From NCBI RefSeq assembly GCF_002075285.3, contig NZ_CP021983.2:2010001-2042000 (forward strand): a stretch of DNA of 32,000 bases, in the 5' to 3' direction. Shown here in pieces: positions 1,637-30,428 of the stretch (position 1 is its first letter; each line of letters starts with the position of its first letter). Below the pieces are notes generated by a model. That model was not told the DNA's origin. It saw nothing but the letters and a program-made list of their open reading frames with translations, and ran no database searches. This DNA is from Halomicronema hongdechloris C2206. GTDB taxonomy: Bacteria > Cyanobacteriota > Cyanobacteriia > Phormidesmidales > Phormidesmidaceae. The translations under genes were made by a program, and so were the position numbers.

Positions 1637-3703
1637 ATGGTTACCATTCCCATCTATGAGGATTTGTCCATTGGTCTGGAGGGAACGCAGGGTCAGAGTG
1701 GTGTGGCCATTACGGGGTTGCAGTTAGCGGCGATATCGGTGCCCCTGCCGCAGGTGGCTAGGGTTACGATTCCCCAGAAATTCTTTCTGTCTGAGGCTGA
1801 TCGGCTGCGGCTGCGGCCAGCCGATGAAGTCCTTAACCAGACCTTTGAGTTCCCGGCTAGGGAGCTGCGCTTAGATGGGGTGCAAGTTGCGATCGCATGG
1901 AACAGCCTGCGGCTGCAACTGCGGCTACCGATTACCGGCGCCCCAACCCTACGCCTAGACCTCGTTGGCCTCGCCCTCAGTACTCCCCTAGTCCCCGGCT
2001 TTGACATCAACGGCCACCTCTCCCTGGCCTTTAGCTTGGACGGAGGGCTGCTGGCTGAGGAGTCCCGTTTCCAGCGCTTCGAGCCCGATCCCAGCAATCT
2101 GGTGCCCCTGGATATTCGGGGCTTCAAATTAGACGACCAGTGCTTCGCCGTGCGCTGGGGCGAGACCAATCTCAATTACTGGATCCAACGGCTGGTGCCC
2201 AACTTCGCCGATCAGAGTGCCCCCATCGAGAGTGAACTCACGCTGCGGCTGCTACTGGGCCAGCCCCTAGAGGAAATTCGCCTAGATTGGGCCGTCTCCG
2301 GCATCGGCAAGACCTTCACCCTGCCGGGACTGCAGATTCAAACCCCCGATGCGGTGCGCTTCACCCTGCTGTTGCAGGCCCTAGAGACCCCCGATCTGCT
2401 GGATAATCTGGCCTTCCTACTCACCCTGGATGCGCCTGCCGACCCTAGTAACCCTCGGCCCGGGGAAGCCCTGACCGCCTCCAGTAACTTTGCCTGGGAG
2501 CGCCCCAGCGGTAGCAGTCAAGACCGGGAACTACAGCCTTCAGCAGATGAGACTCCTCCGGCCCGGCCCTTTCTGCAGATGCAGGCCATCCCCAACCAAG
2601 GCATCAGCCTGGTGCTGCTGAGCCTGACCTTGAATGAGCTGGCCCTGCCCCAGTTTTTTCGCCAACTAGACAGTACCCTGGAAGCCCTGAACTTAGAGGA
2701 TCCAGAGTCTCTCCATGGCAAGAGTGTCAATAGCTTTGAAGATTTTGTCCCCCTCAGCAGCAGTATCTGGGGGCGAGCAGAGGAGAGCGATCGCACCGGC
2801 CTCAGTATTACCCTCAACGACCCCTTCAACCTCCCCTTCCTGAACCGGCCCGGCAGTAACCAGACCGATGCCAGCGGCAACACCAGCCCAGCCCAGAGTA
2901 TCCGGGTGCGCTCACCCTTCCCTCTGCAAGTCTTCATCGACTTTGCCACCACCGCCGTGGCCGTTCCCATCGACGCCGAGGTCAGCATCGGCGCCCTCAG
3001 CTTTGCCACCCAGATCACCCTAGAGCTGAATTGGGAGACCTTCGCCTTTCGGGTCAACCACGACGGCGGTATCCGCCTGATTTCCGACGGCGAGGCCCTA
3101 CCAGAAAAACAAGTTTCTAGGGCTAACCTGGCGGTTCATCGGCGGCGCCTTCACCGAGGAGCGCAATGGCCTGGAGCGCTACCACCACCTCACCCTGATC
3201 ACCAAAAACTACGACTACAAGATCATCCAAGCCCCCGAGGCCGTGGTGGAAATCGACTACACCCGGGCCAGCCAAGACCCCATCACCTTTGCCCTCAGCG
3301 ATCTGGTGATTTCAGCCCAGGGCTTGAGCCTGACCGCCGAGGTCACCGACCGACCAGCCCGCCTGAATGGGGTCGACACCCGCTTCCGCTTCCACGGCAG
3401 CCGTCTCAGTATCGTCGAAAATCGCATTCAAGATTTTACCCTGGCTGGATCGGGGCCCTTGCCGCCGGCACTGGTGGGGGATGCCATGGTGGATGTCTCC
3501 CTGCAGTTTGCCCAACGAGACGGCAACCTCACCCTGGTGGAAGGAGGAGCAACCCTCTCCGGAGAAAAGCTGCTGCACTGCCAGGGCACCCGCTTTCAGT
3601 TCTCGGTGGATGCCATCGGCCTCAAGTTCGTCAACGACGGTCAGTTCCACCTGTTTTTCACCATCACCGGCAGTGCCCAATTTACCCTGGCCCCCGGCGA
3701 TAG
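1637..3703 (+). CDS. giant-protein gene A, 5' segment (about 490 authentic codons; the tail of this ORF is probably out-of-frame overlap)
   Basis: ATG 1637, frame 2. The translation is protein-like up to ...FRVNHDGGIRLISDGEALPEKQ (about nt 3107). After the A5 run 3105-3109 it becomes Arg/Pro/His-rich (LAVHRRRLHRGAQWPGALPPPHPDHQ...). Frame 0 opens at 3081 and carries the sensible continuation into the next ORF. Confidence 0.6.
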   Translation: MVTIPIYEDLSIGLEGTQGQSGVAITGLQLAAISVPLPQVARVTIPQKFFLSEADRLRLRPADEVLNQTFEFPARELRLDGVQVAIAWNSLRLQLRLPITGAPTLRLDLVGLALSTPLVPGFDINGHLSLAFSLDGGLLAEESRFQRFEPDPSNLVPLDIRGFKLDDQCFAVRWGETNLNYWIQRLVPNFADQSAPIESELTLRLLLGQPLEEIRLDWAVSGIGKTFTLPGLQIQTPDAVRFTLLLQALETPDLLDNLAFLLTLDAPADPSNPRPGEALTASSNFAWERPSGSSQDRELQPSADETPPARPFLQMQAIPNQGISLVLLSLTLNELALPQFFRQLDSTLEALNLEDPESLHGKSVNSFEDFVPLSSSIWGRAEESDRTGLSITLNDPFNLPFLNRPGSNQTDASGNTSPAQSIRVRSPFPLQVFIDFATTAVAVPIDAEVSIGALSFATQITLELNWETFAFRVNHDGGIRLISDGEALPEKQVSRANLAVHRRRLHRGAQWPGALPPPHPDHQKLRLQDHPSPRGRGGNRLHPGQPRPHHLCPQRSGDFSPGLEPDRRGHRPTSPPEWGRHPLPLPRQPSQYRRKSHSRFYPGWIGALAAGTGGGCHGGCLPAVCPTRRQPHPGGRRSNPLRRKAAALPGHPLSVLGGCHRPQVRQRRSVPPVFHHHRQCPIYPGPRR

Positions 3704-6700
3704 CCCCAATGGCCCGCTGGCGCTGCTGAGCGCCGTGCAGCTGCAGCTGGTGGAATGCCCCCTCACCGGCGATGCCAGCGTCATCGCCGAGCATGTGAAC
3801 TTCGTGGTAGAGCTGCCAGAGCCGGTCAGCTTCAATTTCCTTGGCTGCTTCGAGATGGAAATTCGGGGCATCGGCTTCGTACCCCAGTTTGAGAAATTTG
3901 ACAACGAAGCAGCCATGCGCATCTCCGGGCAAGTGAAATTTGCCCAGGGCGGCGGCGACGCCCTCAGTGCCCGCATCGATGTCCACGATCTCTACATCGG
4001 CTTACCGCGGCCGGGGAGCTTTGTGCCCCGGCTCTACTTCCGGGAGCTGGTGGTGGAAATCACCTCCGGCGAAGCCTTCAAACTCTACGGCGTGGTGGAG
4101 ATGATCGACGAGGCCGATGCCCAGGGGTTTGCCGGGGAAGGGCGCATCGAGATCAAGGGCTTGCCCGTGATCGCCGCTAGCTTTGCCTTCTTGCGGGTGC
4201 GCCGTGATGAAACCGCTCCTTGGGTCAGGGCCTGGTTCGTCTTCCTGCAGATTGAGCAAGTCACCTTCCGCATTCCCTATGTGGAGTTATATATCCGGGA
4301 AGTGGGGCTGGGCTTCGGCTATCGCTATACCCTGGCCAGTATTCGGGCCGCCGATGAGGCAGGGGATCTGCAGGAACTGCTGTCGCAGTTACGTAGTCTG
4401 TCCCGCACTCAGGGGGATCTGACCCGACGCGATCGCTGGGCAGTCGATATCGAAGGGGAAGGGGAAGCGCTGCGCTGGACCATTGTATTGCGGGCGTTGA
4501 TCTCCCAGACCTCAGCCTCTCCCAATTCCCTACGCTGGATCGAGCAGGCGGAGCGGGTATTGCCCTGCCTCTATGTGTTTGATGCCATTATTGCCTTCCG
4601 CAGCGATCTCACCTTTTTTATGGCGGTGCGCTGCTGGTTTAACACCAACTACTGGGGCTTCGTCAACGATGTGGATGGCCTACGGGAGCGGCCCCTACTC
4701 ACTGGGTTTGTGTTGTTGTCGGTACGGCAGAAGCGGTTTTTAGCCCAGATTGCCTCGAATCCGGAGGGCAGTTTGGGCCATATCGTGCCGATCCCCCCTC
4801 TAGTAGAGCGGATCGTCAACAATGCTCAATTTTCCGCCACCCTGCTGATCGAGCCGGGCCTAGTCATGCGGAATTGGGCTGGCCCAATATGTTGCGCTGG
4901 TCTAACAAGATTGGTCCCTGGATGTGGAGATCCGCGGCGGCGCCATCTTCCGCACCACAGCAGATTATCTGGTGATTGGGGTCGCTTCTTGGCCCGGGCC
5001 AGCTTCCGCTTCCAAGCCGAGCGCAATCTCCGGGTGTTTGGGGCTCGAGTCACTGCCGATGTCAACGGAGCCTTCGGAGCTCGCTACATTGGCTTGATGG
5101 ATTTCAACGATCCAGTAGCCGATTCCGCCTTCTATGCGGCCATCGGTATCGAGGTGCGCATCCGCATTGCCATCGAGTTCTGGATCAAGTTTCTATTTAT
5201 TGAGAAGAGCTTTGAGTTCAGCGTCTCCTTGGAGTTCACCGCTGCCATGGAAGTGGGGGTAGCCAGCCTCAACCCCTCCGACGCCGGCTTCCGGGCTCGA
5301 GGTACTCTGGCAGTGCGGTTCATGGGCCGGGGGATTCAACTCAGTGTCAGTCTTGGCTTCCGGGAAGAGAAGGTAACCATCGCCCAGCGACGGGTAGAGC
5401 CTTTCCTAGGGGTGGGGTTAGAGGCCACCGATGTGGAGGCGGTGCCTGGGGTAGAACCGGCAGATGCCGGAGGGAATGGCCAAACTGTCTTGGCCACGGC
5501 GACCTCAGGAGGTCCCCCCCCGACCCCGGCTGCTGCCTTCCTGGCCACCGGCCCCCGAGCCACGACAGGCACTCCCCCGACAGCCCCCTCCGTCCTAGGG
5601 TCGTCGGTGGGTGCCAGCGCAGGCAGGGCTCCCCAGGCCTTGACTGCGACCGGCGTGGATGTAACTGCCGTATTGGCAGCCCTAGAGGGCATCACCTTAC
5701 CCGCCCCCAGCCCCCAGAGACCGCCTTACCACCCCAACTACGATGTCTTCTTGATTGACGACCCCGACGATGGGTCCGATTACCACTACTTCGTGCTGGT
5801 GCCCCGGGGGAAGCTCCGCAGGCAGCACTGCCCTAGAAGAATTGGCTTTTTGCCGGCACCGCCTATGGACGATCAGGGCAATTTCGTCCAGGTGGAACAG
5901 GATTTTGAGTTGACGATTCCGGCGGCAGACTTGACCTTGGAACAGTACGATCCCATCGCTGCTGATTGGGTGACCCGTCCCTTAGGGCAACCCTTCAGCT
6001 GGCAGGTGGCCTGGACGGCCCCGATCCTGACTGGTATAGAGTTTGATCCTGCTACAGAAACTCCGCGCACCGATGGCAGTGGAGTGCCAATCCCAGGAGA
6101 ACAGCAGCTGCAAGATTACCTCACCTATGCCTTCAAGGTAGACGGGGAGATTGACCAGGAGCGCATCATCGCCGATCCAGATCCGCTGTGCCAGGACCGC
6201 CACCAGGCCAGCAGCATTGCCGATGAGCGCGTGCATAATCCCAGCGAAGATGCCTTCGAAGCCGCAGTGCGGGGGGCTTTAGAGCAGTTCCGGGGCTCCC
6301 CTTACTTCAAGCGGGATCCCAACTCTCCCTACGATCACGCCTTAGATGGCGCCTTCCAGGCCACCACCACCATCTACAACGACTCTGGTGCCATCGATGA
6401 GGCTGCCGACATTAACCAGCAAGCTCACCAGTTACGGGGCTTGGTAGTGCACGATCTGGTCAATGATCTGCGCAGCTATGCCGAGGCTGCCCTCGAGACC
6501 AAACCCGATGTTACTGCCATGATCGGCTTCCAGATGGGGTTAGTCTTTCGCTGCACGGGTTCTCTGCCGACTTGGCTGACGGAAGCGGTCACAGAGCCTG
6601 ATAAGACTAATACCGATTTTGATCCAGCCACGGCCTCGATTCCCATTCTCTATCAGCGGCTGGGACCGCATAGTCCCCGTCCCGATAAGTCCCAATACGG

Positions 6701-9700
6701 CTGTGTGCGCACCTTCAACATTGCCGCCGCCAACTTCGCTCTCAACCCGCCCCAGTTCCAACGGATAGAGCAATATACCGACGCCAATACCATTGCCCTG
6801 GCCTGGGATCTGACCTGGGCCCAACCCCCGGCCCTGAACTGCAGCGAATGTCAGGCCGAGCCGGAGCACCATCTGATCCACTACCAGGTGCGGCGGCGCT
6901 CCCTCGATGGCGGCGAGCGGGAGGTGAGCTACACCGTTAAGGGTGCCGAAGCTCTCCACTACGAGACCCGCTTTCAGATCACTGCCGAGACCCTCCAGAC
7001 CCTGACCCAGGCCCTGGATGCCCAGGCTCAGCCATCCCTGTTGGCGGAACTGCAGCAGATCCTAACGCCCCTGATGGATCGTTCTTTCCAGGGACAACGG
7101 GCCTTTCTGGCTGCCCTAGAGCCAGTCTTGACGGAGCTACAGCAGCAGGGAGCCAGCTCCGCTCAGGTGGCCCAGTTGCAAGCCCTGCTCTTGCAAGCTG
7201 CGATAGAGCCGGGGAGTGGCCTGTTGCAACGGCTGCAACCGCGCTTCCAGCTAGTGGATCACTTCAATGCTGAGACCCTGGAAGACCAAGCCGCCCTACC
7301 GGTTACTGGGCGTAGCTACCTCTACAGCATCACGCCGGTAGATTTGGCCGGTCATAGCGGCCGTCCCCTCACCCTGGTGGCGACCCGCTATCCCAACGAG
7401 CCGCCCCGGGTGCCCGTCAATGGTCGGCTGATTATGCGCTATGACCTGCAACAGCAGGGAGATACTGTGGTAGTACGCTACCCCAATCGCCAGGATCCCC
7501 TGCTCTCAGACATCCATCCCGAGCGTCCCACCCTGCCGACGGTGCTGTTGCCTACCTTGGAGCCAGACGGCGAGGAGGTCGAGCTGGGCATTGAGGTCAC
7601 CTGGCAGGATCCTCAGCCCCAGCGAGAGGGGCCACGAGTACCCATCGCCACTTACCGACTGATCTTCCGGCGAGAGACGATTCTGCCCATCGGTAGCTAT
7701 GGCCTCGATAATTCCATCCAGGGCCCCCGCACCAAGACCTTGCCCACCAGCAATGCCCGCCCCCTGCCCACGGATATCAAAATCGATGTGATTCCCAGTG
7801 GTCCTCAGGAGGCCAGGCGGGCTCGAATTCCCTTGGAGACGCTGCAGCAGACAGGCATTTTCCCAGCAGGGGAAGCTGCTCTCTGGCAGCCGCAAGCCTG
7901 GCGGATTTATCTGCAGACCATTTCTGCTAATCAGGTGCCCTCGGCCCTGGCCCCGGTGGAACTGGTATTGCGGTTTGACTCTCCCGATGGCCGGGAAGAG
8001 AAGCAACCCTCCGAACTGGAGTGGGTACCCAAACCCATCCGCCTGCCGGTATTGCCTCCAGAAGACCAGCGGGCCACCACCGGCCCGGCCCACTTCCCCA
8101 TGCCTCGACCGGATCGCTTGAAGTTCCAGGGCACTCCGGCCCAGGTGGCGGCAGCAGTTCACTATGGCAGCCATCCGGCTGGACTGCGGTTGATTCGCTT
8201 CCGCTGGAATCAAGGTCCTAGCGGCCAGGCGGATTATCCCACCGACCTCAATGGTGGCTATGAGCTATTGCAGCTGGATGCCGATGCCCATACCGATACT
8301 GTGTGGGCAGGCCAGGCTGGACAGACGGAACGCTTTGCCCGGGCCTGGCAACCGATTCAGGATGTGCAGATGTTGCCGGGGGTAGGATCTGCTACTCACC
8401 CCCGACGACACCCTGTCTACGGGGCAATGGAGGCCTGTACCGCAGTGAAGTCGTCTTCGCCCCTCGAGCCAGGGGAACGGGGAGAGGGATCTCAGATTCC
8501 TAGGGGGCCCTGGTATTCCTGGCGGGAGTCGATTCTAGTATGGCCCCAGTGGCAGCGGCCCCAGGCCATTGACCGAGCTAGTGATGCCGAGGCGGCGGCC
8601 TTGCATCCCCTGTTGCGGAAGATTCTGGATGACTTAGGCCGGAACTACACCCTGGATCTGCAGACCAATGTGCCCATGCAGCCGGTGGAATTCGCTCCCT
8701 TCATGGATGCCACGGCCTTTAAGGCGGACCCCTATGGCTGGGGAATCTTGCAGCGTCTGGGCTTAAGCATCACCGTGTCGTTGCGACAGCGACGGAGCAA
8801 TGATCTGTTGACAGGTCAGGAATTGTTGCAGGTCTTGTTACCTGTGGTTGATGTCAATCAACAGGACCCTGCCTACCAAGGCCATTATTCCCACCTGCAT
8901 GTGGAACTACTGGTGCAGCCCAGTCGGCGGGTCAGCCCTGGTCCCTTAGAGGGCTTAGCTCCGGATGCTCTATTGGGCATGGTACAGCTGAGCATGCGCC
9001 CCACCATTCGCCAGGTACAGCGGTATGGTCAGGTGACAATTACTGGCACCGGTAGCACCTCGGTACAGGTGGCCTTTACGCTGAATGGTCCTTGTACTGT
9101 GATCAATCAGGCTGATGCAGCCGGTGGCCAACTGGAGTTGGAGCCCTCTGGCGATGACGACAAGCCCATCGTGCGCAGCCTGCGCCTACCTCTCACGGGC
9201 AAATTAACGCTGCTACTGCGGGGACGGCAATTGCCTACGGTGGCCCTAGAGCCAGTGAGTAATTTGCCGCAGGGGGCTCGGGAACCTTCGATTAGCCCGG
9301 TCGAGCCCTTTGCAGCCACCGATGAGCGCTCTACCTACTTCACGGTGGCTGTGGAGACTTTGGCCAACGCCTTCAGTGATAGTACGCCGGTATCGGCAGC
9401 TCAGACCCAATGGCGGCGATTGAAGGCTTATCTGGAGTTTCTTAACCCCGATGACGATGCCAGTGCTAACCCTCGCCTGCGCCTTCCCACCGATGCCGAT
9501 GGCATTGCGGCGGTGTTACCTGACTTCTTGGCCTGGTCGCAGCGATTCTTCGATGCCAACGGTGCCACGGTGATCGATGCCGGGGGTCTGGCCGTCACGG
9601 ACTCAGGGCCATGGCTGGTGACGGCCTATCCCCACAGTGGCTCTCCCGCCTATGCCAGCCCCGACCGGAGTGGGCGGCTGAGCTATGACCATGTGCTGGA

Positions 9701-16348: not shown

Positions 16349-17227
16349 TTGGTGTTGTCAGGGGGGGCCAGCACTCACCTTGGGCGAGGAAAGGGTATTG
16401 GCCGGTATTTCCGGACACTTTGCCTTGGCGGAAAATCGACTGACTCGCCTGGCTCCTGGAACCCGTGGCTGCCAGATGCCTATGCCGTGACGGCAGGCAG
16501 TCTAGCGGCCCACTCTGAGTCGGGTGGCCTCAGTGACCAGCGGGGGTTGACCCGCTTCGGTGCGATCGCATCAGCCGATCTCCCCATCAATCTGATCAAG
16601 ACTCCCATAGCATTTCAGGCCACCCCCGATCGCCGCCTTGCCTATGAACTCGTGAGTCTGCAGCAGCCAGAGTCCCTACAGGGAGGCGGCACTCCCTGGC
16701 AACTCTGGTTTCGCGATCTCCCCGTCCAGACCCTAGATCCTGAACGCGGCGAATTTCGTCGCCAGGATACCGTTTCACCGGTGGCCAAAGAGCTTCACAG
16801 CGACATCAACGATCCCGAAGCCCTCTCCCGAGACCACAACTTTCTCAATGGCTATGAGTGGCGTTTGGCCGCCGAGGCTGCCCCACCGTTAGACCTCTTC
16901 GGCCTACACTTCTATCCCCTCACCCTAGAGCGAGTCGATATCCAAAATGACCAGGTGATGGTGGTGGAGATCGTCGGTCGCCTGCAGCTCCCCTTGCCCG
17001 GTCAAGACGAGAAGAAGACGCCACACGAAGAAAACGCCAATCCCGCATCTGAGCTTAAGGATCTCGGCAATGCCGTGCGCCTGCGTTACCAGCGCCAGAC
17101 GACTGAGGGCTCCTTAGAGCTGAGCCGGGTCAGCCTCGACTCGGCTGTGGCCGAATGGCCCCTGGCCCTGGATGCCAACGGAGAAATCACCGATGCCCCC
17201 TGCTCACCTGGCAGACCCTGCGGCTAG
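16349..17227 (+). CDS. large LamG-domain protein D, segment 1
   Basis: TTG 16349 / GTG 16352 lies 10 nt after the stop of gene C. The translation is protein-like from about 16465 (NPWLPDAYAVTAGSLAAHSESGGLSDQRGLTRFGAIASADLPINLIKTPIAFQ...) to ...LALDANGEITDA (about 17196). The first ~40 codons look out of frame, and frame 0 there reads PALTLGEERVLAGISGHFALAENRLTRLAPG. Confidence 0.55.
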   Translation: MVLSGGASTHLGRGKGIGRYFRTLCLGGKSTDSPGSWNPWLPDAYAVTAGSLAAHSESGGLSDQRGLTRFGAIASADLPINLIKTPIAFQATPDRRLAYELVSLQQPESLQGGGTPWQLWFRDLPVQTLDPERGEFRRQDTVSPVAKELHSDINDPEALSRDHNFLNGYEWRLAAEAAPPLDLFGLHFYPLTLERVDIQNDQVMVVEIVGRLQLPLPGQDEKKTPHEENANPASELKDLGNAVRLRYQRQTTEGSLELSRVSLDSAVAEWPLALDANGEITDAPCSPGRPCG

Positions 17228-17472
17228 TCGACGGGACCCTGCGCCTGGGGAGACCCAATGATACGGAGGGCGGCCAGGTGTGGTTGCGATTCTTCCGATT
17301 TGGTCAGGAATGGGCCTTGCCATTACCCGCCGATGCCCTGCAATTTCCCCAGCCCCAACCAGTGGTCTATGAATTTCCGCCGCCCTCATCCTCAGATTAT
17401 GTGTGGCCCCCAAGGCAGTCCATCTGCGCTTGGATATGGAGACTGCCAGCTACCAGCATCAAGCCTTTTTAG
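17155..17472 (+). CDS. protein D, short bridging segment (authentic part about 17197-17410)
   Basis: Frame 1 reads PLLTWQTLRLVDGTLRLGRPNDTEGGQVWLRFFRFGQEWALPLPADALQFPQPQPVVYEFPPPSSSDYVWPP between two C5 runs (17196-17200 and 17407-17411). Both ends of the tracked ORF look out of frame. Confidence 0.45.
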   Translation: MAPGPGCQRRNHRCPLLTWQTLRLVDGTLRLGRPNDTEGGQVWLRFFRFGQEWALPLPADALQFPQPQPVVYEFPPPSSSDYVWPPRQSICAWIWRLPATSIKPF

Positions 17473-19544
17473 ATCTCGGCCTGCGCCTGGGCCGCTCCCG
17501 CCCAGAGGGCGGCGAATCGCGCTCGGTGTTTGAGGCCCTGGTGCAGTTTTCCCTAGTATCTGCCTCGCTAGCTCCCACCTGGGAGCAGTCCAGCCTATTC
17601 TTCGGCGATCTGCAGGCGGGTGACGAGGCCGAAGTAGTAGCGACCCCCAGTAGTCTGCAGTTTCGCTGGCAAGGTTACACGGCCACCTCAAGCAATTTAC
17701 CGCCAACGGCATTACAATTGCTGCCCGGCATGCATTTGGACCGTCCTGAAGCAGCCGGAGGCTACGCTGTTTTAACCTTTGCCACGGCAGCGGCTCCAGA
17801 GGCACCGTCAGACGACTTACCAACCCCGGCGGTGTATCCGGTCTTCAGACTAACGGCTGCCTTCATGGAAACCCTGCTGTTTTGTCGTTGGGGCACATTT
17901 CTCCAGACACCAGCAACAACAGAAGCAACTCGCTCAGGGACACGCCAGCAAATCTATGGCTCCACCGCCGGCGATCTCACCGTTGGCTATACCGCCCGCT
18001 GGCAACTCGACCCCGACGCTCCCGCCGCCAACCCAGGTACCTGGCAAGAGTCCCTATTACTCAACGGCTTCCTAGAAGTCAAAAACGTGATCTCCTGGCC
18101 TCAAGCCCTGGAACTCAGCAGCCAGGCAGATGCCAACGGCGTGGTCATGACCACCCTAACCTTACCTGCGATTGAGACTCCCAACGGAGAAACCGCTGCC
18201 CTCAACCATGTGCGGCATACGGCCAGAGTGTTGTTCAATCAGCATGTCTTACCTCCGGAGCTGCTCGCCGCTGGTGCCGGAGAACTCTTTTTCCAGCTTG
18301 CTTCCGACCACTCATGGCAGTTTCTGGCCGTCGTCGAACACCAGCTGATCAACGTGGCCTCCACCTCTGACCTGGCTAGCCACCAACTCACGGGTGACCG
18401 GCGCTGGACCATTACCCAGGAAGTGCGGCTGGTTACCCCGGCGGGGTTCAAAACCTTCCTGGAAAGCCATCGCTCTGGTCAGACCATCGATGCGGTTATC
18501 GGCGTCGACAGCTTGGGCGATAGCAGTGATAGCTATCTGACCGCTAGCCTGCGGGATCAACTCACTGTCGGAGAAACCGCTGAACTGGATCGACTCTCTG
18601 AGAAAACCCTATTGGTGGAGATGAGCGCCGTGCACTGGGTGCGGCAACCGACCTCGACCTCAGCGGTCTCGGCGGCTACCACTCGAGGTAGCGGCACCAC
18701 TTTACAATTTCTCCCTAACGGCACCCAATTGGGCCTGCTCAGCAGCCCTGAGGATTATGGCGCCTCCGATCCCCATGACCCGGCTTGGCTGCTATTGACC
18801 TTACCGCTATTGGGCCGTTTGCAAGCTCAAGAGGCTGATGAGCTGCCAACCACCGTCACAGATGCCCTCAGTCCCCTGCAGGTGGATCCGATACTGCTGT
18901 TAGCCCAGCCATCTACCACAGTGACGAATCTACGGCTGCTGTCAGCCCTGACTCACTGGGGACGAGAGGATGCCATTACCCTGGCCGTGACTGGCTTCGA
19001 CACCGCTGCTGGCCGTACCTGGGCGCGTTTAGATCCCCTCTCTCTAGAAGAAAGCTGGTTCCGCCTGCAGACCCCGCCTCCGGAAACTAGTCCCGACAGC
19101 TTCCAGAGCATCTTGGCCGCCTTACCCGAGACCCCAGCCCGCCAGAGTCGAGCCGCCGCCCTGGCCCACGCCTTCCGAGTGGTCCGCCCTACCTATCCCC
19201 CCCAGACCTTGTCCATCTCTGCCTCGGAAAGCTCAGGAGATAATTTCCTCCACTGGCGTCCCCACAGCCTCTTAGCCCCCTCCGGGGTCAGTCGCCTAGG
19301 GGATGGCCTAGAGCTCCTGTATCGCTTCGATGGCAGCAGCGGAGACCAAATTCCCGACGATTCCCAAGTAGATCCGCCTCTGAACCTGACCATCGACAAT
19401 GCCGCCGCAACCGCGGAGTTTCTACCGGGGGAGGCCTACGAATTCGCCAAGCAACCATTATCCAGGCCTCGCCTCCAATCAATAAGCTCCTGGCGGCCTG
19501 CCGGGCCAGCAACGCCTTCACCCTGGAAATCTGGATTTCCTTAA
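17403..19544 (+). CDS. protein D, segment 3 (713 aa as tracked)
   Basis: A long, uniformly protein-like frame-0 ORF (..KAVHLRLDMETASYQHQAFLDLGLRLG...LLYRFDGSSGDQIPDDSQVDPPLNLTIDNAAATAEFLPGEAYEFAKQ). The last ~30 codons (PLSRPRLQSISSWRPAGPATPSPWKSGFP) look out of frame. Confidence 0.7.
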   Translation: MAPKAVHLRLDMETASYQHQAFLDLGLRLGRSRPEGGESRSVFEALVQFSLVSASLAPTWEQSSLFFGDLQAGDEAEVVATPSSLQFRWQGYTATSSNLPPTALQLLPGMHLDRPEAAGGYAVLTFATAAAPEAPSDDLPTPAVYPVFRLTAAFMETLLFCRWGTFLQTPATTEATRSGTRQQIYGSTAGDLTVGYTARWQLDPDAPAANPGTWQESLLLNGFLEVKNVISWPQALELSSQADANGVVMTTLTLPAIETPNGETAALNHVRHTARVLFNQHVLPPELLAAGAGELFFQLASDHSWQFLAVVEHQLINVASTSDLASHQLTGDRRWTITQEVRLVTPAGFKTFLESHRSGQTIDAVIGVDSLGDSSDSYLTASLRDQLTVGETAELDRLSEKTLLVEMSAVHWVRQPTSTSAVSAATTRGSGTTLQFLPNGTQLGLLSSPEDYGASDPHDPAWLLLTLPLLGRLQAQEADELPTTVTDALSPLQVDPILLLAQPSTTVTNLRLLSALTHWGREDAITLAVTGFDTAAGRTWARLDPLSLEESWFRLQTPPPETSPDSFQSILAALPETPARQSRAAALAHAFRVVRPTYPPQTLSISASESSGDNFLHWRPHSLLAPSGVSRLGDGLELLYRFDGSSGDQIPDDSQVDPPLNLTIDNAAATAEFLPGEAYEFAKQPLSRPRLQSISSWRPAGPATPSPWKSGFP

Positions 19545-19980
19545 CCGCCGATCAGCTCTTCCAGAATAATGCCCGCATTGTCACCCTGTCGGTGAATAAT
19601 CAGAACAGCTACTTCTCGCTGGTCATGCGGGATAACCGGAATGGTCACTATGCCCTGCGGCTGCAGACCAGTGACGGTGATGCCAGTATCGAGAGTGCCT
19701 TCAGCTCTATTGCCCCGGGGTTGACTCAACTGGTCTTCAGTCTTACCTCGGCGGGAACGGGCCATGTCTATGTCAATGGGGTAGAGCAGCCCCAGCAGCG
19801 CCAGTCTATCGCCGGTGCCTTATTTGCAGCGGATGACATCGCAGATGATCGCTTCAACCTGGCCTTTGCCAATGAAAATGGCAATTTCCCGCGGCCTTGG
19901 TTGGGGGAGCTTCACTACGCCGCCCTCTACAGCCAGCCCTTACCCGCCGCCGAGGTAGCCCATCATTATCAACTGGGCGT
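19313..19980 (+). other. LamG / concanavalin-A-like jelly-roll domain coding region, split by a frame break near 19446-19463
   Basis: Reading across the break gives LLYRFDGSSGDQIPDDSQVDPPLNLTIDNAAATAEFLPGEAYEFAKQ | TIIQASPPINKLLAACRASNAFTLEIWISLTADQLFQNNARIVTLSVNNQNSYFSLVMRDNRNGHYALRLQTSDGD...LTQLVFSLTSAGTGHVYVNGVEQ...RPWLGELHYAALYSQPLPAAEVAHHYQLG. This is the classic layout of LamG-like jelly-roll domains: FDGxxG..DxS start, FTLExWI strand, and a W.G.l....lY...L...Ev..hY end. Confidence 0.7.
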
Positions 19981-22387
19981 GGCGCTGTTAAGAACCTATC
20001 GCCAGCGTCCCTATCCCTGGCATGGCACTGGCTTACAACTACGGAGCAGCCGCCTCTGGAGTTCGACGGCTGATGCAGCGATTCAGCGCTACCCGGCGGC
20101 CACCCTATTACCGGCCCTGCTGCAGTTAGAAACTACCCCCAATCCCATCCCCTGTAGTTTGGCTGTCAGTCCCTACCTAGGGTTAGACTTTCGACCCGCT
20201 CAAGGGACATACGAGCGACGAATCGTCTCTGCCGAACTGCTGGGTCTAAATCCAACGTCTGGCCAGTTGCTGCCGGTAGCCAGCCACCTGTGGGAAGCCA
20301 CTCAAGATGCGATCGCCCTCGACGATGAGAGGTTGACTGCCAGCATCGACCAGTGGGCCCAGCAGACTCATATTCGCTTAGCCCCCGACTCGGCCATCGC
20401 CATCCTGCGATTGCGGGAGCTCCGGCAACTGACCTCGGAGAATCCAAATCAGACAATGGCTGTCTTACAGCCTCGATATCGCTTCCGCATCGTGCCCAAT
20501 ATCCAGATTCGCCAGTCGCTGACCCAACGCACCTTCAATCTCAGATCTCAGGTGAGCCAACTGCGGTTCCGGCAAGGACAATTTGGAGGATATCAGCTGC
20601 CGCAGAATCTGCACCCAGTAGAGCTGGCCCCACCCCAGGTGATCGGGGTTCAGCCCTTATACTTGCCTGAGCGACCCGAGTCAGATGCTGCGGGAGCATG
20701 GCCTTGGGGATTGAGTAGTTTGCGCCTCAGTGTGCAGTACACCCAGGACCAGCAAGGCGTGATCGGTCCCTATGATGACTCGGAAACTCTCTGGTGGCAG
20801 GCGCCCCAGTATGGTTTGCAGTTTCGCTCGGCCTTACCGGAAGATGGGCCTACTGCCGGGCTGCCTCCCTATTTCCGAGCCACAGCCATTAAGAGCTTGT
20901 TGCCGGTATTGCCGACGCCGCCCTTGCCGGCCATGGTGGATACTGATGCCTGGCAACCGATTCTGCCGGGCCACCTACACTATTTTCTGGTGGGAGATCG
21001 ACCGGGAGCTATGTTGGCCCTGCGCCACCAACTGCTGCGGCAGGCGGCCAGCGCTGGCAATCTGGTGTCCGGTAGTGTGCCGGTGCAGCACCGCTATCCC
21101 CGGCCTGTGCCCTTGCCCTCTAATCAAAACCCAAACACGGCGCTACGGACCTGGGCCAGTTATTTCGATCTGGGCAGCAGCCATCGCCTCACCCAGGCTC
21201 CCAGCGACACGGCCTTTTTCGCCGGTTTCTTAGATGAGAGTAGCGGGCTATTGCAACCTGCTCGAGGTCTAGAGTTAACGATCAGGGAGCCTGTCCAGGG
21301 TGTGATTGACTCCAGCTGGGACGGTCGTCTGGAATTCAGTGCTCAGGCCCAAATTGGATTTTCGCCGCAGTCAGAAGTTGTCGATGAGGCGTGGGACATC
21401 CAGGTGACGATTATCAGTGGTGGTCTCACCCTCACCTATGAGCAATTCCCAGAGGGTCACTATGACTTGAGTGCCGACCAACAGCAACGCCTACAGCGAT
21501 TGCTAGCGGAGCGACAACCAGGGGAAACCCTGACCGTGTGTGCCAAGGTAAACCCCAGGGCCATCGAGGATGGATTCTATCAGACCCTAACCTTCCCGCT
21601 GCGGCTGCGGGATCCGGACGCGTTACCGTTACCCCTGACCCCTTACTTCATTCATTTCGAAGATCCCGAGTACAATCGCCAGTTGGCCTCCTCGGCAGCC
21701 CATGCCGCCCGAGAGATTTCCTTGCCAGGCGATGGTGACGAGCTGGTCACCTACCGTGCTAAGTTGGCCTGCGATCGCAGAGAATACAATCCCGATAGCC
21801 AGATGGCCCTGCGCTACGACTGGGATGATGATGCCGTTACAGGCACTGCCGACCTGACCATCCAGCGCATCGATGCCAATGGCATTTCCGCCGACCTAGT
21901 GTTACTCAATGGATCCTTAACCGGGATTGCTCCCGGCCGACTGTTACAGTTTTCCCTGGCCGACCTGCGCCGACCCGGTCAAGAGCAACCGCCGCTGCTA
22001 CAGACGGGCATGGCCCTGCAATTGACCTTGACCTTGAGATCTAGGCAGGATGTGCCGATTGATAGTGATCCTGTGGTGCTCACCGTCACTATCGTGGCCG
22101 ATCCTGTGATTCCAACCCCTGACGCCGCCTATGCCCTGTTGCGACAACGGCAATCCGATGGAGTCGAGTGCGTCCGCTTCGCCTGGGGCCCCGCCGCCGG
22201 CCGCATCGAGCTGTTGCGGGCCGATGATTTGCGGACTGAAATCGTGCGCCGACGAGCCGTCTTTCAGTGGTCAGACACGGCCAGACCCCTAACGCCTGAA
22301 ACCTCTGACGGCATTCACTATGCCCTGCAAAAGATCGGTGCCACCGGGGCTACCCACACCACCGATTTCCAGTCGCCGGCATCCTAA
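19592..22387 (+). CDS. protein D, 3' segment (931 aa as tracked; the frame is open and protein-like from about 19455)
   Basis: Frame-2 ORF with no suspicious stretch, ending at TAA 22385-22387. The tracked GTG 19592 sits in the middle of the LamG domain, so it is not the true start. Confidence 0.75.
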   Translation: MNNQNSYFSLVMRDNRNGHYALRLQTSDGDASIESAFSSIAPGLTQLVFSLTSAGTGHVYVNGVEQPQQRQSIAGALFAADDIADDRFNLAFANENGNFPRPWLGELHYAALYSQPLPAAEVAHHYQLGVALLRTYRQRPYPWHGTGLQLRSSRLWSSTADAAIQRYPAATLLPALLQLETTPNPIPCSLAVSPYLGLDFRPAQGTYERRIVSAELLGLNPTSGQLLPVASHLWEATQDAIALDDERLTASIDQWAQQTHIRLAPDSAIAILRLRELRQLTSENPNQTMAVLQPRYRFRIVPNIQIRQSLTQRTFNLRSQVSQLRFRQGQFGGYQLPQNLHPVELAPPQVIGVQPLYLPERPESDAAGAWPWGLSSLRLSVQYTQDQQGVIGPYDDSETLWWQAPQYGLQFRSALPEDGPTAGLPPYFRATAIKSLLPVLPTPPLPAMVDTDAWQPILPGHLHYFLVGDRPGAMLALRHQLLRQAASAGNLVSGSVPVQHRYPRPVPLPSNQNPNTALRTWASYFDLGSSHRLTQAPSDTAFFAGFLDESSGLLQPARGLELTIREPVQGVIDSSWDGRLEFSAQAQIGFSPQSEVVDEAWDIQVTIISGGLTLTYEQFPEGHYDLSADQQQRLQRLLAERQPGETLTVCAKVNPRAIEDGFYQTLTFPLRLRDPDALPLPLTPYFIHFEDPEYNRQLASSAAHAAREISLPGDGDELVTYRAKLACDRREYNPDSQMALRYDWDDDAVTGTADLTIQRIDANGISADLVLLNGSLTGIAPGRLLQFSLADLRRPGQEQPPLLQTGMALQLTLTLRSRQDVPIDSDPVVLTVTIVADPVIPTPDAAYALLRQRQSDGVECVRFAWGPAAGRIELLRADDLRTEIVRRRAVFQWSDTARPLTPETSDGIHYALQKIGATGATHTTDFQSPAS

Positions 22388-30026: not shown

Positions 30027-30428
30027 TTAGATACGTCTGAGATATTCGATAAAATGCTTTTTCTCTTCCTCTGTCAATTCACGTCTACGTGTTTTACTGT
30101 AATTTTCTTGAAGGTACTCTTGGGCTTGTGTAACTTTCCAACCTGCAAAGCACATTTCAACTAGAATTTGGTCATCTAAGGATAACTCTATAACTCCGGC
30201 AATGAGCTTCCAGCAAGGATCTGGTGGTCCAGTCCATTCTGCAGGAGTGTAGGGCATCCCAAGGCTGACAGTGACTAGGCAGGGTCTCTCTGGAAAGATT
30301 TCTCGATCTAGCAAATCTACAAGTTCAGGATCAGTAATTGGTAGATTCTGCAGAGAGTAACCTGTCCGAGTCCTTAGGGAAGCTTTCCATTGTTTGCCAC
30401 CTGTTCTTCGAGAAGATTTAGCAGGCAC
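30027..30428 (-). CDS. hypothetical small protein (133 aa, GTG start) in an AT-rich islet
   Basis: This is the only sizeable ORF in the visibly AT-rich stretch 29955-30620. The product has a basic N-terminus (PAKSSRRTGGKQWKASLRTRTG) and a charged C-terminus (TRRRELTEEEKKHFIEYLRRI). No family recognised, and the start codon is uncertain. Confidence 0.4.
   Translation of the reverse strand: MPAKSSRRTGGKQWKASLRTRTGYSLQNLPITDPELVDLLDREIFPERPCLVTVSLGMPYTPAEWTGPPDPCWKLIAGVIELSLDDQILVEMCFAGWKVTQAQEYLQENYSKTRRRELTEEEKKHFIEYLRRI

Follow-up and report, generated by a model that had tools for sequence, protein, structure and literature searches.

On sequence comparison, positions 1637–22387 of the window (the whole 32,000-nt stretch of DNA analysed here) comprise two predicted giant genes, A and B, rather than one, and the at least 20 one-base indels that break their reading frames in about 12 patches are probably residual consensus errors in the deposited assembly, A and B being intact in the organism. 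The window comes from Halomicronema hongdechloris C2206 (XM38_019200 matches at 100%), the type strain of the first chlorophyll-f cyanobacterium. In the published annotation the locus corresponds to XM38_019120–019210, ten fragments that are all designated 'hypothetical proteins'.

Two giant genes and their relatives

Gene A is read in frame 2 up to approximately position 3110 and thereafter in frame 3, with short excursions, while gene B is in frame 2 at both its start and its end. The start of A, MVTIPIYEDLS, resembles MVNIPIYDDLS in the Nodosilinea orthologues, and that of B, MPSIPAAAMTSVTVQGPLWSA, resembles MPPIPPTAMNSVTVTGPFWSA. Repaired A showed 59.8% identity to a 4,039-codon open frame of Nodosilinea sp. 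P-1105 (about 3,976 aa when the ORF is counted from the matching Met), and the repaired part of B showed 53.5% identity to Nodosilinea B, with no stop inside either of them. B is one ORF of 2,600–3,070 aa in relatives, and the repaired lengths of about 4,035 and 2,861 codons fit those of the orthologues. The initial annotation had treated the giant locus as one gene; this reading is ruled out by the conserved A/B boundary at 13754/13805, since the layout of A stop and B start is common to approximately 30 relatives. The frame change at this point is thus an ordinary gene boundary and no frameshift, and A and B together form a putative conserved operon.

The locus had also been taken for an orphan, but homologues of A/B were detected in 35 GTDB species. 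Among the 39 related loci of at least 9 kb, which come from eight or more phyla, A and B are each encoded in a single frame in about 30. The intact isolates include Nodosilinea sp. P-1105, Leptolyngbya sp. JSC-1, [Phormidium] sp. LEGE 05292 and Archangium minus, and intact A + B were also found in well-covered SPAdes or MEGAHIT metagenome-assembled genomes (MAGs). No second copy or close relative of the strain above approximately 70% amino-acid identity was found in the protein collection, the GTDB genomes or the JGI metagenomes, the best JGI metagenome match reaching 46%.

One-base indels along the locus

Forced frame changes were located with a stop-forbidding codon-usage Viterbi path, which needed 11 frame changes and one gene boundary, and with a frameshift-aware protein-to-DNA alignment against 12 intact homologues (Table 1). 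All eight coordinates at which stop codons had been claimed to force a change of frame proved correct to within about 30 nt. In one of these cases, at 19446–19463, the break itself stands and its position does not, the G5 run at 19427–19431 fitting better. Five patches initially suspected from wrong-frame composition inside open ORFs (4860–4990, 5802–5851, 8381–8465, 14496–14603 and 16361–16465) were all confirmed by homology; the patch at 16327–16470 is forced by stops, beyond composition inference. The lesions are exclusively 1-nt indels, with a stop-free path of about 20 one-base shifts. Deletions exceed insertions by approximately 13 to 5, and some break sites are only 8–60 nt apart. The reported lack of in-frame nonsense codons also held, as homologue-guided repair of A and B left no internal stop.

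Table 1. Genes A and B, their boundary and the indel sites within them, with the frame changes of the Viterbi path and the sites given by homologue alignment (a slash in a peptide marks a break)
Feature	Coordinates	Strand	Viterbi path	Homologue alignment	Details
Gene A (predicted)	1637..13754	+			~4,035 codons repaired; annotated as XM38_019120, 019130, 019140
+1, frame 2 to frame 3	3105..3113	+	~3113	3105-3113	On or adjoining A5 3105-3109; 12/12 homologues read LPEKQ/FLGLTWRF across
Three separate 1-nt deletions	4863..4987	+			4863-4865, 4916-4921 (C3, probably C4), 4984-4987
Off-frame excursion, 2-3 indels	5802..5851	+			Candidates C4/G5 5802-5810, GG 5844-5845 or T5 5847-5851
At least 4 indels	8380..8490	+			+1 at 8385, -1 at ~8428, -1 at ~8436, at least 1 more before 8490
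+1 and -1	12957..13067	+	~12966, ~13066	12957, 13063-13067	+1 on C4 12957-12960 (true run probably C3); -1 at 13063-13067
A/B boundary (predicted)	13752..13807	+	~13743 (boundary)		A stop codon, AGGAGGA ribosome-binding site ~13791-13797, B ATG 13805
Gene B (predicted)	13805..22387	+			2,861 codons repaired; seven fragments XM38_019150 to 019210
+1 and -1	14519..14589	+			+1 on C4 14519-14522 (predicted true run C3); -1 at ~14580-14589; hidden in open ORF
Two or three indels	14801..14923	+	~14828, ~14893	14801-14831 and 14871-14923	Bypass frame-2 stops 14834-14836 and 14846-14848
1-nt deletion, frame 2 to frame 1	15644..15652	+	~15650	15644-15652	12/12 homologues; away from long homopolymers
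Two or three indels	16327..16470	+	~16336, ~16455	16327-16336, 16443-16470	Frame 1 via frame 2 and/or 3 to frame 2; one placeable on G7 16361-16367 (predicted true run G6)
1-nt deletion, frame 2 to frame 1	17196..17201	+	~17198	17196-17201	On C5, true run probably C6
1-nt deletion, frame 1 to frame 3	17374..17401	+	~17377	17374-17401	Just upstream of C5 17407-17411; 12/12 homologues
1-nt deletion, frame 3 to frame 2	19395..19431	+	~19455	19395-19431	Best on G5 19427-19431, true run probably G6

Conserved sequence could be followed from frame to frame across the individual sites. The patch at 4863–4987, which the open ORF of XM38_019130 conceals, is read through frames 3, 2, 1 and 3 again; all 12 homologues align FSATLLIEPGL-V-HAELGWPNMLRWSNKIGP-L-DVEIRGGAIFR...LVIGV-S-FLARA across it, and it measures 121 nt in the window vs 124 nt in the closest relative (L004). 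At 8380–8490, the invariant DL.LTP.DTL...W-EA-WY.S is recovered solely via frames 1, 3 and 2. A frame-3 stop at 13062–13064 terminates the annotated 3,273-aa ORF, and the four closest homologues align EI/PSGLADQLQI...LRDD/TTRDQSLRTAI across 12957–13067. In gene B, frame 3 encodes EAAGFIAAWAALDQALNP at 14519–14589, similar to EAAALTAAWAQLGQMLNP, with support from 6 of the 12 homologues, and STGELVLSGG (frame 2), LTLGEERVLAGISG (frame 3) and AYAVTAGSLAAH (frame 2) each match homologues at 16327–16470. Further downstream, all 12 homologues align ..GEITDAP-x-LTWQTLRL across 17196–17201, the frame-3 VAPKAVHLRLD at 17374–17401 corresponds to (L/I)AP..V.L.LD, and AEFLP/GGGLRIRQATII at 19395–19431 aligns with WLPDGGLRV and WIPGGGLRI, the deletion being placed there by at least 9 of the 12. 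Two segments are variable, and the exact events or positions in them are uncertain: 5802–5851, where frame 1 ALEEL is followed by frame 3 GFLPAPP (homologues have (V/F)EELGFLP(A/V)PP), and 14801–14923, where a frame excursion is needed by 11 of the 12 homologues and the conserved WQETITLEQL picks up again in frame 2. Examples of tryptic peptides that would span the repaired junctions are ...IEPGLVHAELGWPNMLR, IGPLDVEIR, ...YLVIGV(S/A)FLAR, ...GEITDAPLLTWQTLR, ...AEFLPGGGLR and ...SLPQEIPSGLADQLQIAPDQVAWLGAVPSAQQR, and VMRNWAGPICCAGLTR is an example from the out-of-frame reading.

Several breaks had been placed by the initial annotation exactly on homopolymers. This is supported or plausible for A5 3105–3109, C4/G5 5802–5810, C4 12957–12960, G7 16361–16367 (the longest run coinciding with a break) and C5 17196–17200, and also for two further sites, C4 14519–14522 and G5 19427–19431. 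It is less well supported for C5 17407–17411, whose break fits better at 17374–17401, and for T5 5847–5851, where the event could equally lie on GG 5844–5845. About half of the events are off runs of at least four (4863, 4984, 8385, 13066, 14583, 15650, 16333 and 16460). The mix of over- and under-calls on A5, C4, C5, G5 and G7 runs with indels off homopolymers fits 454 and early PacBio data. The events are also clustered, with 8 of 19 gaps shorter than 130 nt (P = 8e-4), and clustered indels are what patches of poor consensus produce.

The flanking genes, described from the outset as intact, have full-length Pfam matches and contain no hidden off-frame patch according to a codon model able to flag the giant locus. 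Confinement was tested on the 8.7 kb of flank CDS contained in the window, in which 8.4 events (5.0 patches) would be expected at the rate of the locus and none was seen (P(0) = 2e-4 by events and 6e-3 by patches); the contrast is hard to obtain from a uniform error process, as had been argued. We considered and rejected three causes of this confinement: locally higher GC (0.611 in the patches vs 0.610 in the rest of the locus), higher homopolymer density (4.0 runs of at least five per kb in the locus vs 3.8 in the flanks) and DNA repeats breaking the assembly, of which there were none of note. Given the equal homopolymer density, the equal GC and the lack of explanatory repeats, a locus-wide cause of the errors is a conjecture.

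Origin of the indels

Changes at columns invariant in all other homologues amounted to 3.4% in repaired A and 4.6% in repaired B, compared with 0.8% to 5.9% in intact lone lineages, so that no excess change at invariant residues relative to those lineages was found; outside the unresolved patches, such changes were mostly conservative. Highly conserved motifs are perfectly encoded across the frame hops, over three deletions in 121 nt at 4863–4987 and over at least four indels in approximately 100 nt at 8385–8490. The out-of-frame stretches swap HAELGWPNMLRW and WEAWY.S for unrelated sequence, and the abandoned frames encode both at normal identity. Given that these motifs are intact in the abandoned frames, the indels, if real, can only be very recent.

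None of the break positions is common to the window and any relative among the approximately 39 loci compared. The broken relatives that can be typed either come from Ion Torrent or SPAdes assemblies of low coverage or bear long-read-style contig names. One study supplied both SM2_5_2, an Ion Torrent assembly of 2.5x k-mer coverage, and RU_5_0, which has 24.5x coverage and is intact; the A/B family is thus shredded in a 2.5x MAG and intact at about 24x, as with Ion Torrent errors. In the broken L018, coverage is 3.9x and the sequence contains runs of N; the names of the broken L030, L035, L002 and L003 resemble long-read assembler output, and in L003 the flanking genes are broken too. The typeable broken relatives point to technical causes.

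The C2206 genome was sequenced with 17x 454, 14x PacBio RS and 41.5x 36-bp Solexa reads and assembled with MIRA, followed by manual merging in Gap5; according to its authors, the 454 reads were poor towards the ends of contigs, contig-end overlaps of 2–50 kb were merged manually, and the genome paper makes no mention of a frameshift check or of homology-guided polishing (PMC6416890). The platform history is thus one of indel-prone 454 and early PacBio reads, 36-bp Solexa reads and manual joins (PMC6416890). The errors most likely arose when the 454, 454-corrected early PacBio RS and 36-bp Solexa reads were merged, a step consisting of MIRA assembly and joining by hand in Gap5, and some 20 kb of the locus may derive from a zone of poor contig ends or overlaps. 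Gene calling would then have split A and B into the ten annotated ORFs. The indels are probably absent from the DNA of the organism, and a specific assembly step would lie behind them.

Five of the ten fragments (019120, 019130, 019140, 019200 and 019210) are present in the published proteome, which detected 1,816 of 5,273 proteins at a protein false discovery rate below 0.5%, each of the five resting on only one or two TMT peptides. Two of them, 019200 and 019210, lie 3.6–5.8 kb into gene B, behind 8–11 breaks, and if the breaks were real, ribosomes starting at 13805 would be unable to reach them.

Consensus indels of 454, Ion Torrent and early PacBio data resemble those of the locus in being one-base indels only, in forming clustered patches in genes with intact orthologues and in combining over- and under-calls on runs of 4–7 bases with scattered indels. 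They differ in that the indels are here confined to one 21-kb operon and the flanks of equal homopolymer density are clean; errors should ignore gene borders, yet 8.7 kb of flank CDS is free of them. The initial annotation had offered surviving consensus errors as its first explanation, attributing them to an orphan, GC-richer locus that polishing could not reach. The intact orthologues, the lack of nonsense mutations, the retained constraint, the downstream protein and the platforms all support the errors themselves. The proposed sub-mechanism is not supported, as the genome paper mentions no homology-guided polishing, homologues are widespread and the patches are not GC-richer than the rest of the locus.

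We regard as unlikely, though deserving of some weight, a genuine and very recent inactivation of the operon, with A and B as fresh pseudogenes in C2206 DNA, possibly under relaxed selection in long-term culture, where a costly 21-kb operon could be dispensable. Confinement to one operon is a prediction of gene-specific loss of selection and is hard to obtain from a uniform error process, deletions exceed insertions as in bacterial mutation spectra, and several events are on homopolymers, which are sites of replication slippage. The pseudogenes of Mycobacterium leprae, Salmonella Typhi and Shigella likewise have lesions concentrated in certain genes next to intact neighbours, with more deletions than insertions. 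However, substitutions are several-fold more frequent than indels in bacterial pseudogenes and mutation-accumulation spectra, and several stop codons would therefore be expected under genuine decay; A and B have at least 20 indels and not one nonsense mutation. The mixed disabling spectrum of those pseudogenes is missing from A/B, with neither nonsense mutations, larger deletions, IS insertions nor relaxed constraint at invariant residues accompanying the 1-nt indels. The occurrence of three or four indels per approximately 100 nt in conserved motifs, and their clustering, is unexpected under neutral decay; roughly half the events lie off slippage-prone runs, and the flanking genes lack the mutation load of a general mutator. 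Moreover, in contrast to reductive-decay pseudogenes, protein is still detected from parts of the locus far downstream of the breaks at the low false discovery rate of the proteome. Decay, which the initial annotation had listed second, would need both a very recent origin and indels alone. More broadly, it is quite improbable that the indels are truly in the DNA, that is, that a conserved operon was riddled very recently by at least 20 clustered one-base indels. Were this so, a locus-restricted, indel-specific mutational process would be implied that left substitutions, conserved residues and neighbours untouched, such as slippage associated with transcription, or tracts of error-prone repair, along a transcription unit of 21 kb, as ordinary pseudogene decay would not give an indel-only pattern.

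Real indels kept under selection, with each frameshift rescued by a nearby compensating indel, would account for the restoration of frame within 50–130 nt and without a stop at 4863–4987, 5802–5851, 8385–8490 and 14519–14589, and for the clustering of opposite-sign events. This is nevertheless very hard to believe: 11 frame changes create stops, are uncompensated locally and divide A and B among ten ORFs, the 'rescued' segments lose conserved motifs that are still encoded in the abandoned frames, and the events at 4863–4987 are three deletions and no +1/-1 pair. On the strength of these motifs and uncompensated breaks, we rejected this third explanation of the initial annotation. Recoding by programmed ribosomal frameshifts or transcriptional slippage, or ten fragments that are separate genes, has a next to negligible chance of being correct, even though fragments downstream of breaks are translated and one site (3105–3113) is on an A-rich run. 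No break position is conserved in the approximately 39 relatives, almost all of them with ORFs free of interruption, the sites have no common slippery motif, shifts go in both directions at sites that can be very closely spaced, and the fragments lack the independent conserved starts that A and B have. Programmed frameshifting (prfB +1, dnaX -1 and IS3-family transposases) and phase-variable loci also have frame changes at or near some homopolymers; the former relies on one site, against about 20 unconserved sites here with no common slippery heptamer or stimulatory element. A phase-variable contingency locus has one long simple-sequence tract, usually of at least 8 nt, whereas the tracts here are of at most 7 nt and about 20 sites, half of them off runs, are spread along the whole gene length.

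The A/B gene pair and its annotation

With the indels read as consensus errors, the ten hypothetical proteins annotated as XM38_019120 to 019210 should be replaced by two genes. The 3,273-aa protein of the annotation is in part a nonsense product of the wrong frame, and proteome searches on the deposited annotation miss peptides from the indel patches. Poor consensus may also affect other stretches of the C2206 genome, a reference widely used in work on far-red photoacclimation.

Sequence searches of A and B against Pfam, NCBIfam, PADLOC and PDB gave no match, apart from a sub-threshold Laminin_G_3 hit in the C-terminal part of the window's gene B (27.2 bits vs a cut-off of 27.6), and a shallow literature search found no paper describing the family; judged by these searches, the pair appears to belong to no described family. 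The AlphaFold model of the A residues encoded by 3243–4830 is all-beta with a pLDDT of 67, and its Foldseek matches to porins and ushers, with TM-scores of at most 0.2, were regarded as meaningless. The upstream neighbours of A/B in other genomes are not conserved, PG_binding_1 being present in two. Giant bacterial genes of more than 2,500 aa are often fragmented by assemblers and gene callers. A and B, at about 4,000 and 2,900 aa, resemble those giant genes whose function is unknown in being mostly beta-strand, widespread and without enzymatic domains, and differ from them in matching no entry of the four databases searched. What repair exposes, a conserved giant gene pair, A then B, is of more interest than the frameshifts themselves; the pair occurs in Cyanobacteria, Myxococcota, Chloroflexota, Rhodothermales, Acidobacteriota, Planctomycetota, Desulfobulbaceae and Acidimicrobiia.

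Two genes in the giant locus and their frame changes

The giant locus (window 1637-22387, + strand) is tiled by ORFs that overlap or abut one another and change reading frame along the way. The published gene table divides it into ten 'hypothetical proteins' in a row, XM38_019120 to 019210; the ORF at 17403-19544, for example, is 100% identical to XM38_019200. Frame changes were located by a sliding codon log-odds scan, a Viterbi path and a frameshift-aware protein-to-DNA alignment. The scan detected a frame switch at every place named in the initial annotation, the Viterbi path with stop codons forbidden needed 11 frame changes plus one more at ~13743, and the same events recurred across 12 intact homologues in the alignment. 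The three methods thus agree that the discontinuities are real features of the deposited sequence, including all eight sites described as forced by stop codons, with small position corrections, and all five patches proposed from wrong-frame composition. Three breaks exist but are, or may be, better placed elsewhere: the one assigned to 19446-19463 fits the G5 run at 19427-19431 better, the one assigned to the C5 run at 17407-17411 lies just upstream of it, and the one on the T5 run at 5847-5851 may rather be at the GG at 5844-5845.

Genes and frame changes in the giant locus (window coordinates)
Feature	Position	Strand	Details
Gene A	1637-13754	+	4,039 codons; start MVTIPIYEDLS, as in the Nodosilinea protein
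Gene B	13805-22387	+	2,861 codons; AGGAGGA upstream; start MPSIPAAAMTSVTVQGPLWSA as in every gene B
Frame change	3105-3113	+	+1
Frame changes	4863, 4919, 4984	+	three separate -1
Frame changes	5802-5851	+	2-3 events
Frame changes	8385-8490	+	at least 4 events
Frame changes	12957 (+1), 13066 (-1)	+
Frame changes	14519 (+1), 14583 (-1)	+
Frame changes	14801-14923	+	2-3 events
Frame change	15650	+	-1
Frame changes	16327-16470	+	2-3 events
Frame change	17201	+	-1
Frame change	17374-17401	+	-1
Frame change	19395-19431	+	-1

Scanning one genome per GTDB species, we found a related locus in at least 35 species from eight or more phyla, with hosts among Cyanobacteria, Myxococcota, Chloroflexota, Rhodothermales, Acidobacteriota, Planctomycetota, Desulfobulbaceae and Acidimicrobiia. 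In nearly all of them, one ORF of 3,200-4,350 aa is directly followed by one of 2,600-3,070 aa, so that the comparison with orthologues proposed in the initial annotation finds A and B as one ORF each, and the locus, which had been treated as a single unit, is two genes. In Nodosilinea sp. P-1105, gene A sits in an open frame of 4,039 codons. A normal gene boundary accounts for the frame change at 13754/13805, because the B start is conserved, AGGAGGA lies ahead of it and A and B have the lengths seen in relatives; all the others fall within genes that are uninterrupted in relatives. After homologue-guided removal of the frame changes, repaired A and B contain no stops and are 59.8 and 53.5% identical to the Nodosilinea proteins, respectively.

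XM38_019130 (annotated as 3,273 aa) stays open through the off-frame patches at 4863-4987, 5802-5851 and 8385-8490, and the deposited protein therefore has nonsense stretches (VMRNWAGPICCAGLTRLVPGCGDPRRRHLPHHSRLSGDWGR, for example) where highly conserved motifs belong. Two adjacent segments that encode the C-terminal end of A, 12270-12953 and 13080-13733, both align to residues ~1665-1989 of the homologue at L001, a related locus on another contig, which suggests an internal repeat module at the protein level; no matching repeat was detected in the DNA.

Detected peptides and fragmented relatives

The published proteome comprises 1,816 of 5,273 proteins at a protein false discovery rate <0.5%, among them five of the ten locus fragments: 019120 (2 peptides), 019130 (1), 019140 (2), 019200 (1) and 019210 (1) (PMC6416890). 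The last two lie 3.6-5.8 kb into gene B, with 8-11 breaks before them; with real breaks, ribosomes starting at 13805 would stop at 14836, short of both. From supplementary file 3 of that paper only the peptide-count column was used. Its Gene Ontology columns seem offset from the locus tags: XM38_019200, for example, is paired with photosystem II terms, and hypothetical proteins with ribosome terms.

Fragmented loci are a minority among the relatives. The closest relative, L004/L038 (Leptolyngbyaceae SM2_5_2, 69% identity), shifts frame six times within gene A and comes from a SPAdes contig of Ion Torrent data at 2.5x k-mer coverage; that study also produced RU_5_0, at 24.5x, where A and B are intact. 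Coverage is 3.9x at another locus, L018, whose sequence contains runs of N, and the contigs of L030, L035, L002 and L003 bear names typical of long-read assemblers. On the L003 contig (ENA ERZ25039600 contig_38187), ordinary genes are also broken (Dak1 into three pieces, an ABC ATPase into two), a sign that this may be a long-read assembly containing indel errors. No break position is common to the window and any fragmented relative, and across the 4863-4987 patch L004 has 124 nt vs 121 nt in the window, exactly three missing bases. Given these low-coverage or long-read-like sources and the lack of breaks shared with the window, fragmentation in the A/B family follows data quality, and conserved recoding sites do not account for the breaks. 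L003 (8564-20316) looks like a much shorter system, with an A-like part of ~3 kb beside a B-like one of ~6 kb. At L001 (5997-13973, Logan SRR25621608), gene A is intact (3,730 aa) and gene B runs as 1,337 + 1,021 + 285 aa via two frame changes, be they real or errors.

Origin of the frame changes

No second sequence of strain C2206 or of a close relative was found in the protein collection, the GTDB genomes or the JGI metagenomes, nor were reads, and for that reason we infer whether the breaks are real from the pattern itself. The frame changes are most probably some 20 errors left in the consensus, which cut up two giant genes that are in fact intact; the indel-only spectrum, normal constraint, preserved motifs, clustering, error mix, assembly type and proteome all agree in favouring this. 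The lesions are exclusively 1-nt indels, at least 20 in number, and repaired A and B need no nonsense codons, so the initial impression that in-frame nonsense substitutions are absent holds. In bacterial pseudogene decay, substitutions outnumber indels and several nonsense codons would be expected. Among columns invariant in all 12 other homologues, 3.4% in A and 4.6% in B are changed in the window, within the 0.8-5.9% of intact lone lineages, and the changes are mostly conservative (I>L, L>V, R>K) once 8421-8448, where the repair is provisional, is set aside. On this measure, constraint on the repaired proteins is not relaxed. The most conserved motifs are still perfectly encoded across frame hops: FSATLLIEPGL/HAELGWPNMLRWSNKIGP/DVEIRGGAIFR...LVIGV/FLARA requires three deletions within 121 nt, and DLLLTPDDTLSTGQW/EA/WY.S several indels within 60 nt. 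Events are significantly clustered (8 of 19 gaps <130 nt, P = 8e-4), as poor-consensus patches would make them and neutral mutation would not. Over- and under-calls on A5, C4, C5, G5 and G7 runs occur together with indels on no run, the mix expected from 454 and early PacBio data. The platform and polishing history, which the initial annotation had singled out, is indeed an indel-prone mix: a hybrid MIRA assembly of 17x 454, 14x PacBio RS (454-corrected) and 41.5x 36-bp Solexa data, described with no mention of a frameshift check (PMC6416890). Its authors describe 454 reads of poor quality towards contig ends, and contig-end overlaps of 2-50 kb were merged manually in Gap5.

The weak point of consensus error as the cause is its confinement to the locus, which was noted at the outset and is borne out. 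The flanking genes (Metallophos protein, ttcA, gmd, fcl, DUF2996 protein, purH, pentapeptide protein and ribE) are full-length by Pfam, and the flanks contain neither stop-forced frame changes nor, by the codon model that flags the giant locus, hidden off-frame patches. Were the flanks hit as often as the locus, the window's own 8.7 kb of flank CDS would be expected to hold 8.4 events (5.0 patches); none was observed (P = 2e-4 and 6e-3, respectively). Homopolymer density is equal (4.0 vs 3.8 runs >=5 per kb inside and outside) and DNA repeats that could explain the confinement are absent. GC content is higher in the locus than in the flank, as had been suggested (0.61 vs 0.54), but the error patches do not exceed the locus average (0.611 vs 0.610), and stretches of 2.4-4.4 kb with the same GC are clean. 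Homology-guided polishing, also put forward, finds no hint in the genome paper (PMC6416890). Since none of these gives a cause, we tentatively attribute the confinement to poor data or manual merging across a zone the size of the locus, a cause that the methods text makes plausible; merged contig ends of that extent would leave a 20-kb stretch of patchy errors beside clean sequence.

Real and very recent decay of A and B would explain the confinement naturally, but it is unlikely: the lesions are all indels and cluster inside conserved motifs, the repaired proteins show normal constraint, and downstream fragments yield peptides. Compensating indels kept under selection are very improbable: 11 breaks create stops, and the 'rescued' segments lose the best-conserved motifs, which the DNA still encodes in the old frames. 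Still less credible is that the breaks are programmed frameshift sites or that the ten fragments are genes in their own right, as relatives conserve no site, there is no shared motif, shifts go both ways and some sites are just 8-60 nt apart. Tests for the mixed mutation spectrum and relaxed selection of a classical pseudogene, for recoding and for phase variation were negative, and the pattern resembles the well-known indel errors by which consensus sequences from 454, Ion Torrent and early PacBio data split deposited genes. Every tested hallmark of such errors was found except independence from gene identity.

The repaired protein pair and neighbouring genes

The frameshifts are most probably not biology and are of low interest in themselves; the conserved, uncharacterised A and B pair is the more interesting by-product. 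Searches of Pfam, NCBIfam, PADLOC and PDB sequences gave no match to either protein, except one sub-threshold Laminin_G_3 (concanavalin-A-like lectin) hit in the last third of gene B (window 19592-19960; residues 4-123 of the 931-aa ORF starting at 19592; 27.2 bits vs a cut-off of 27.6, E = 5e-6); the orthologue from [Phormidium] sp. LEGE 05292 gave no such hit. No obvious signal peptide is present in either protein. For the best-conserved part of gene A (3243-4830), AlphaFold gives a model (pLDDT 67, pTM 0.53) that consists almost entirely of long antiparallel beta-strands, and Foldseek against the PDB gave no meaningful neighbour (porins and ushers, TM-scores <=0.2). Our low-confidence guess is a putative large, non-enzymatic structural or surface-associated protein pair, with a possible carbohydrate-binding module in B.

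In two distant relatives (L023, 2-1789; L037, 173-1384), the gene directly upstream of A encodes a PG_binding_1 peptidoglycan-binding domain; the window has no such gene, and in other loci this position is taken by unrelated genes (LCAT-like, PhoD-like, DUF3738 or no match). Between the pentapeptide gene and ribE, a 133-aa ORF (30027-30428, - strand) has as its sole match the C-terminal part of DuOB (dual OB), below threshold at 23.1 bits vs a cut-off of 27.
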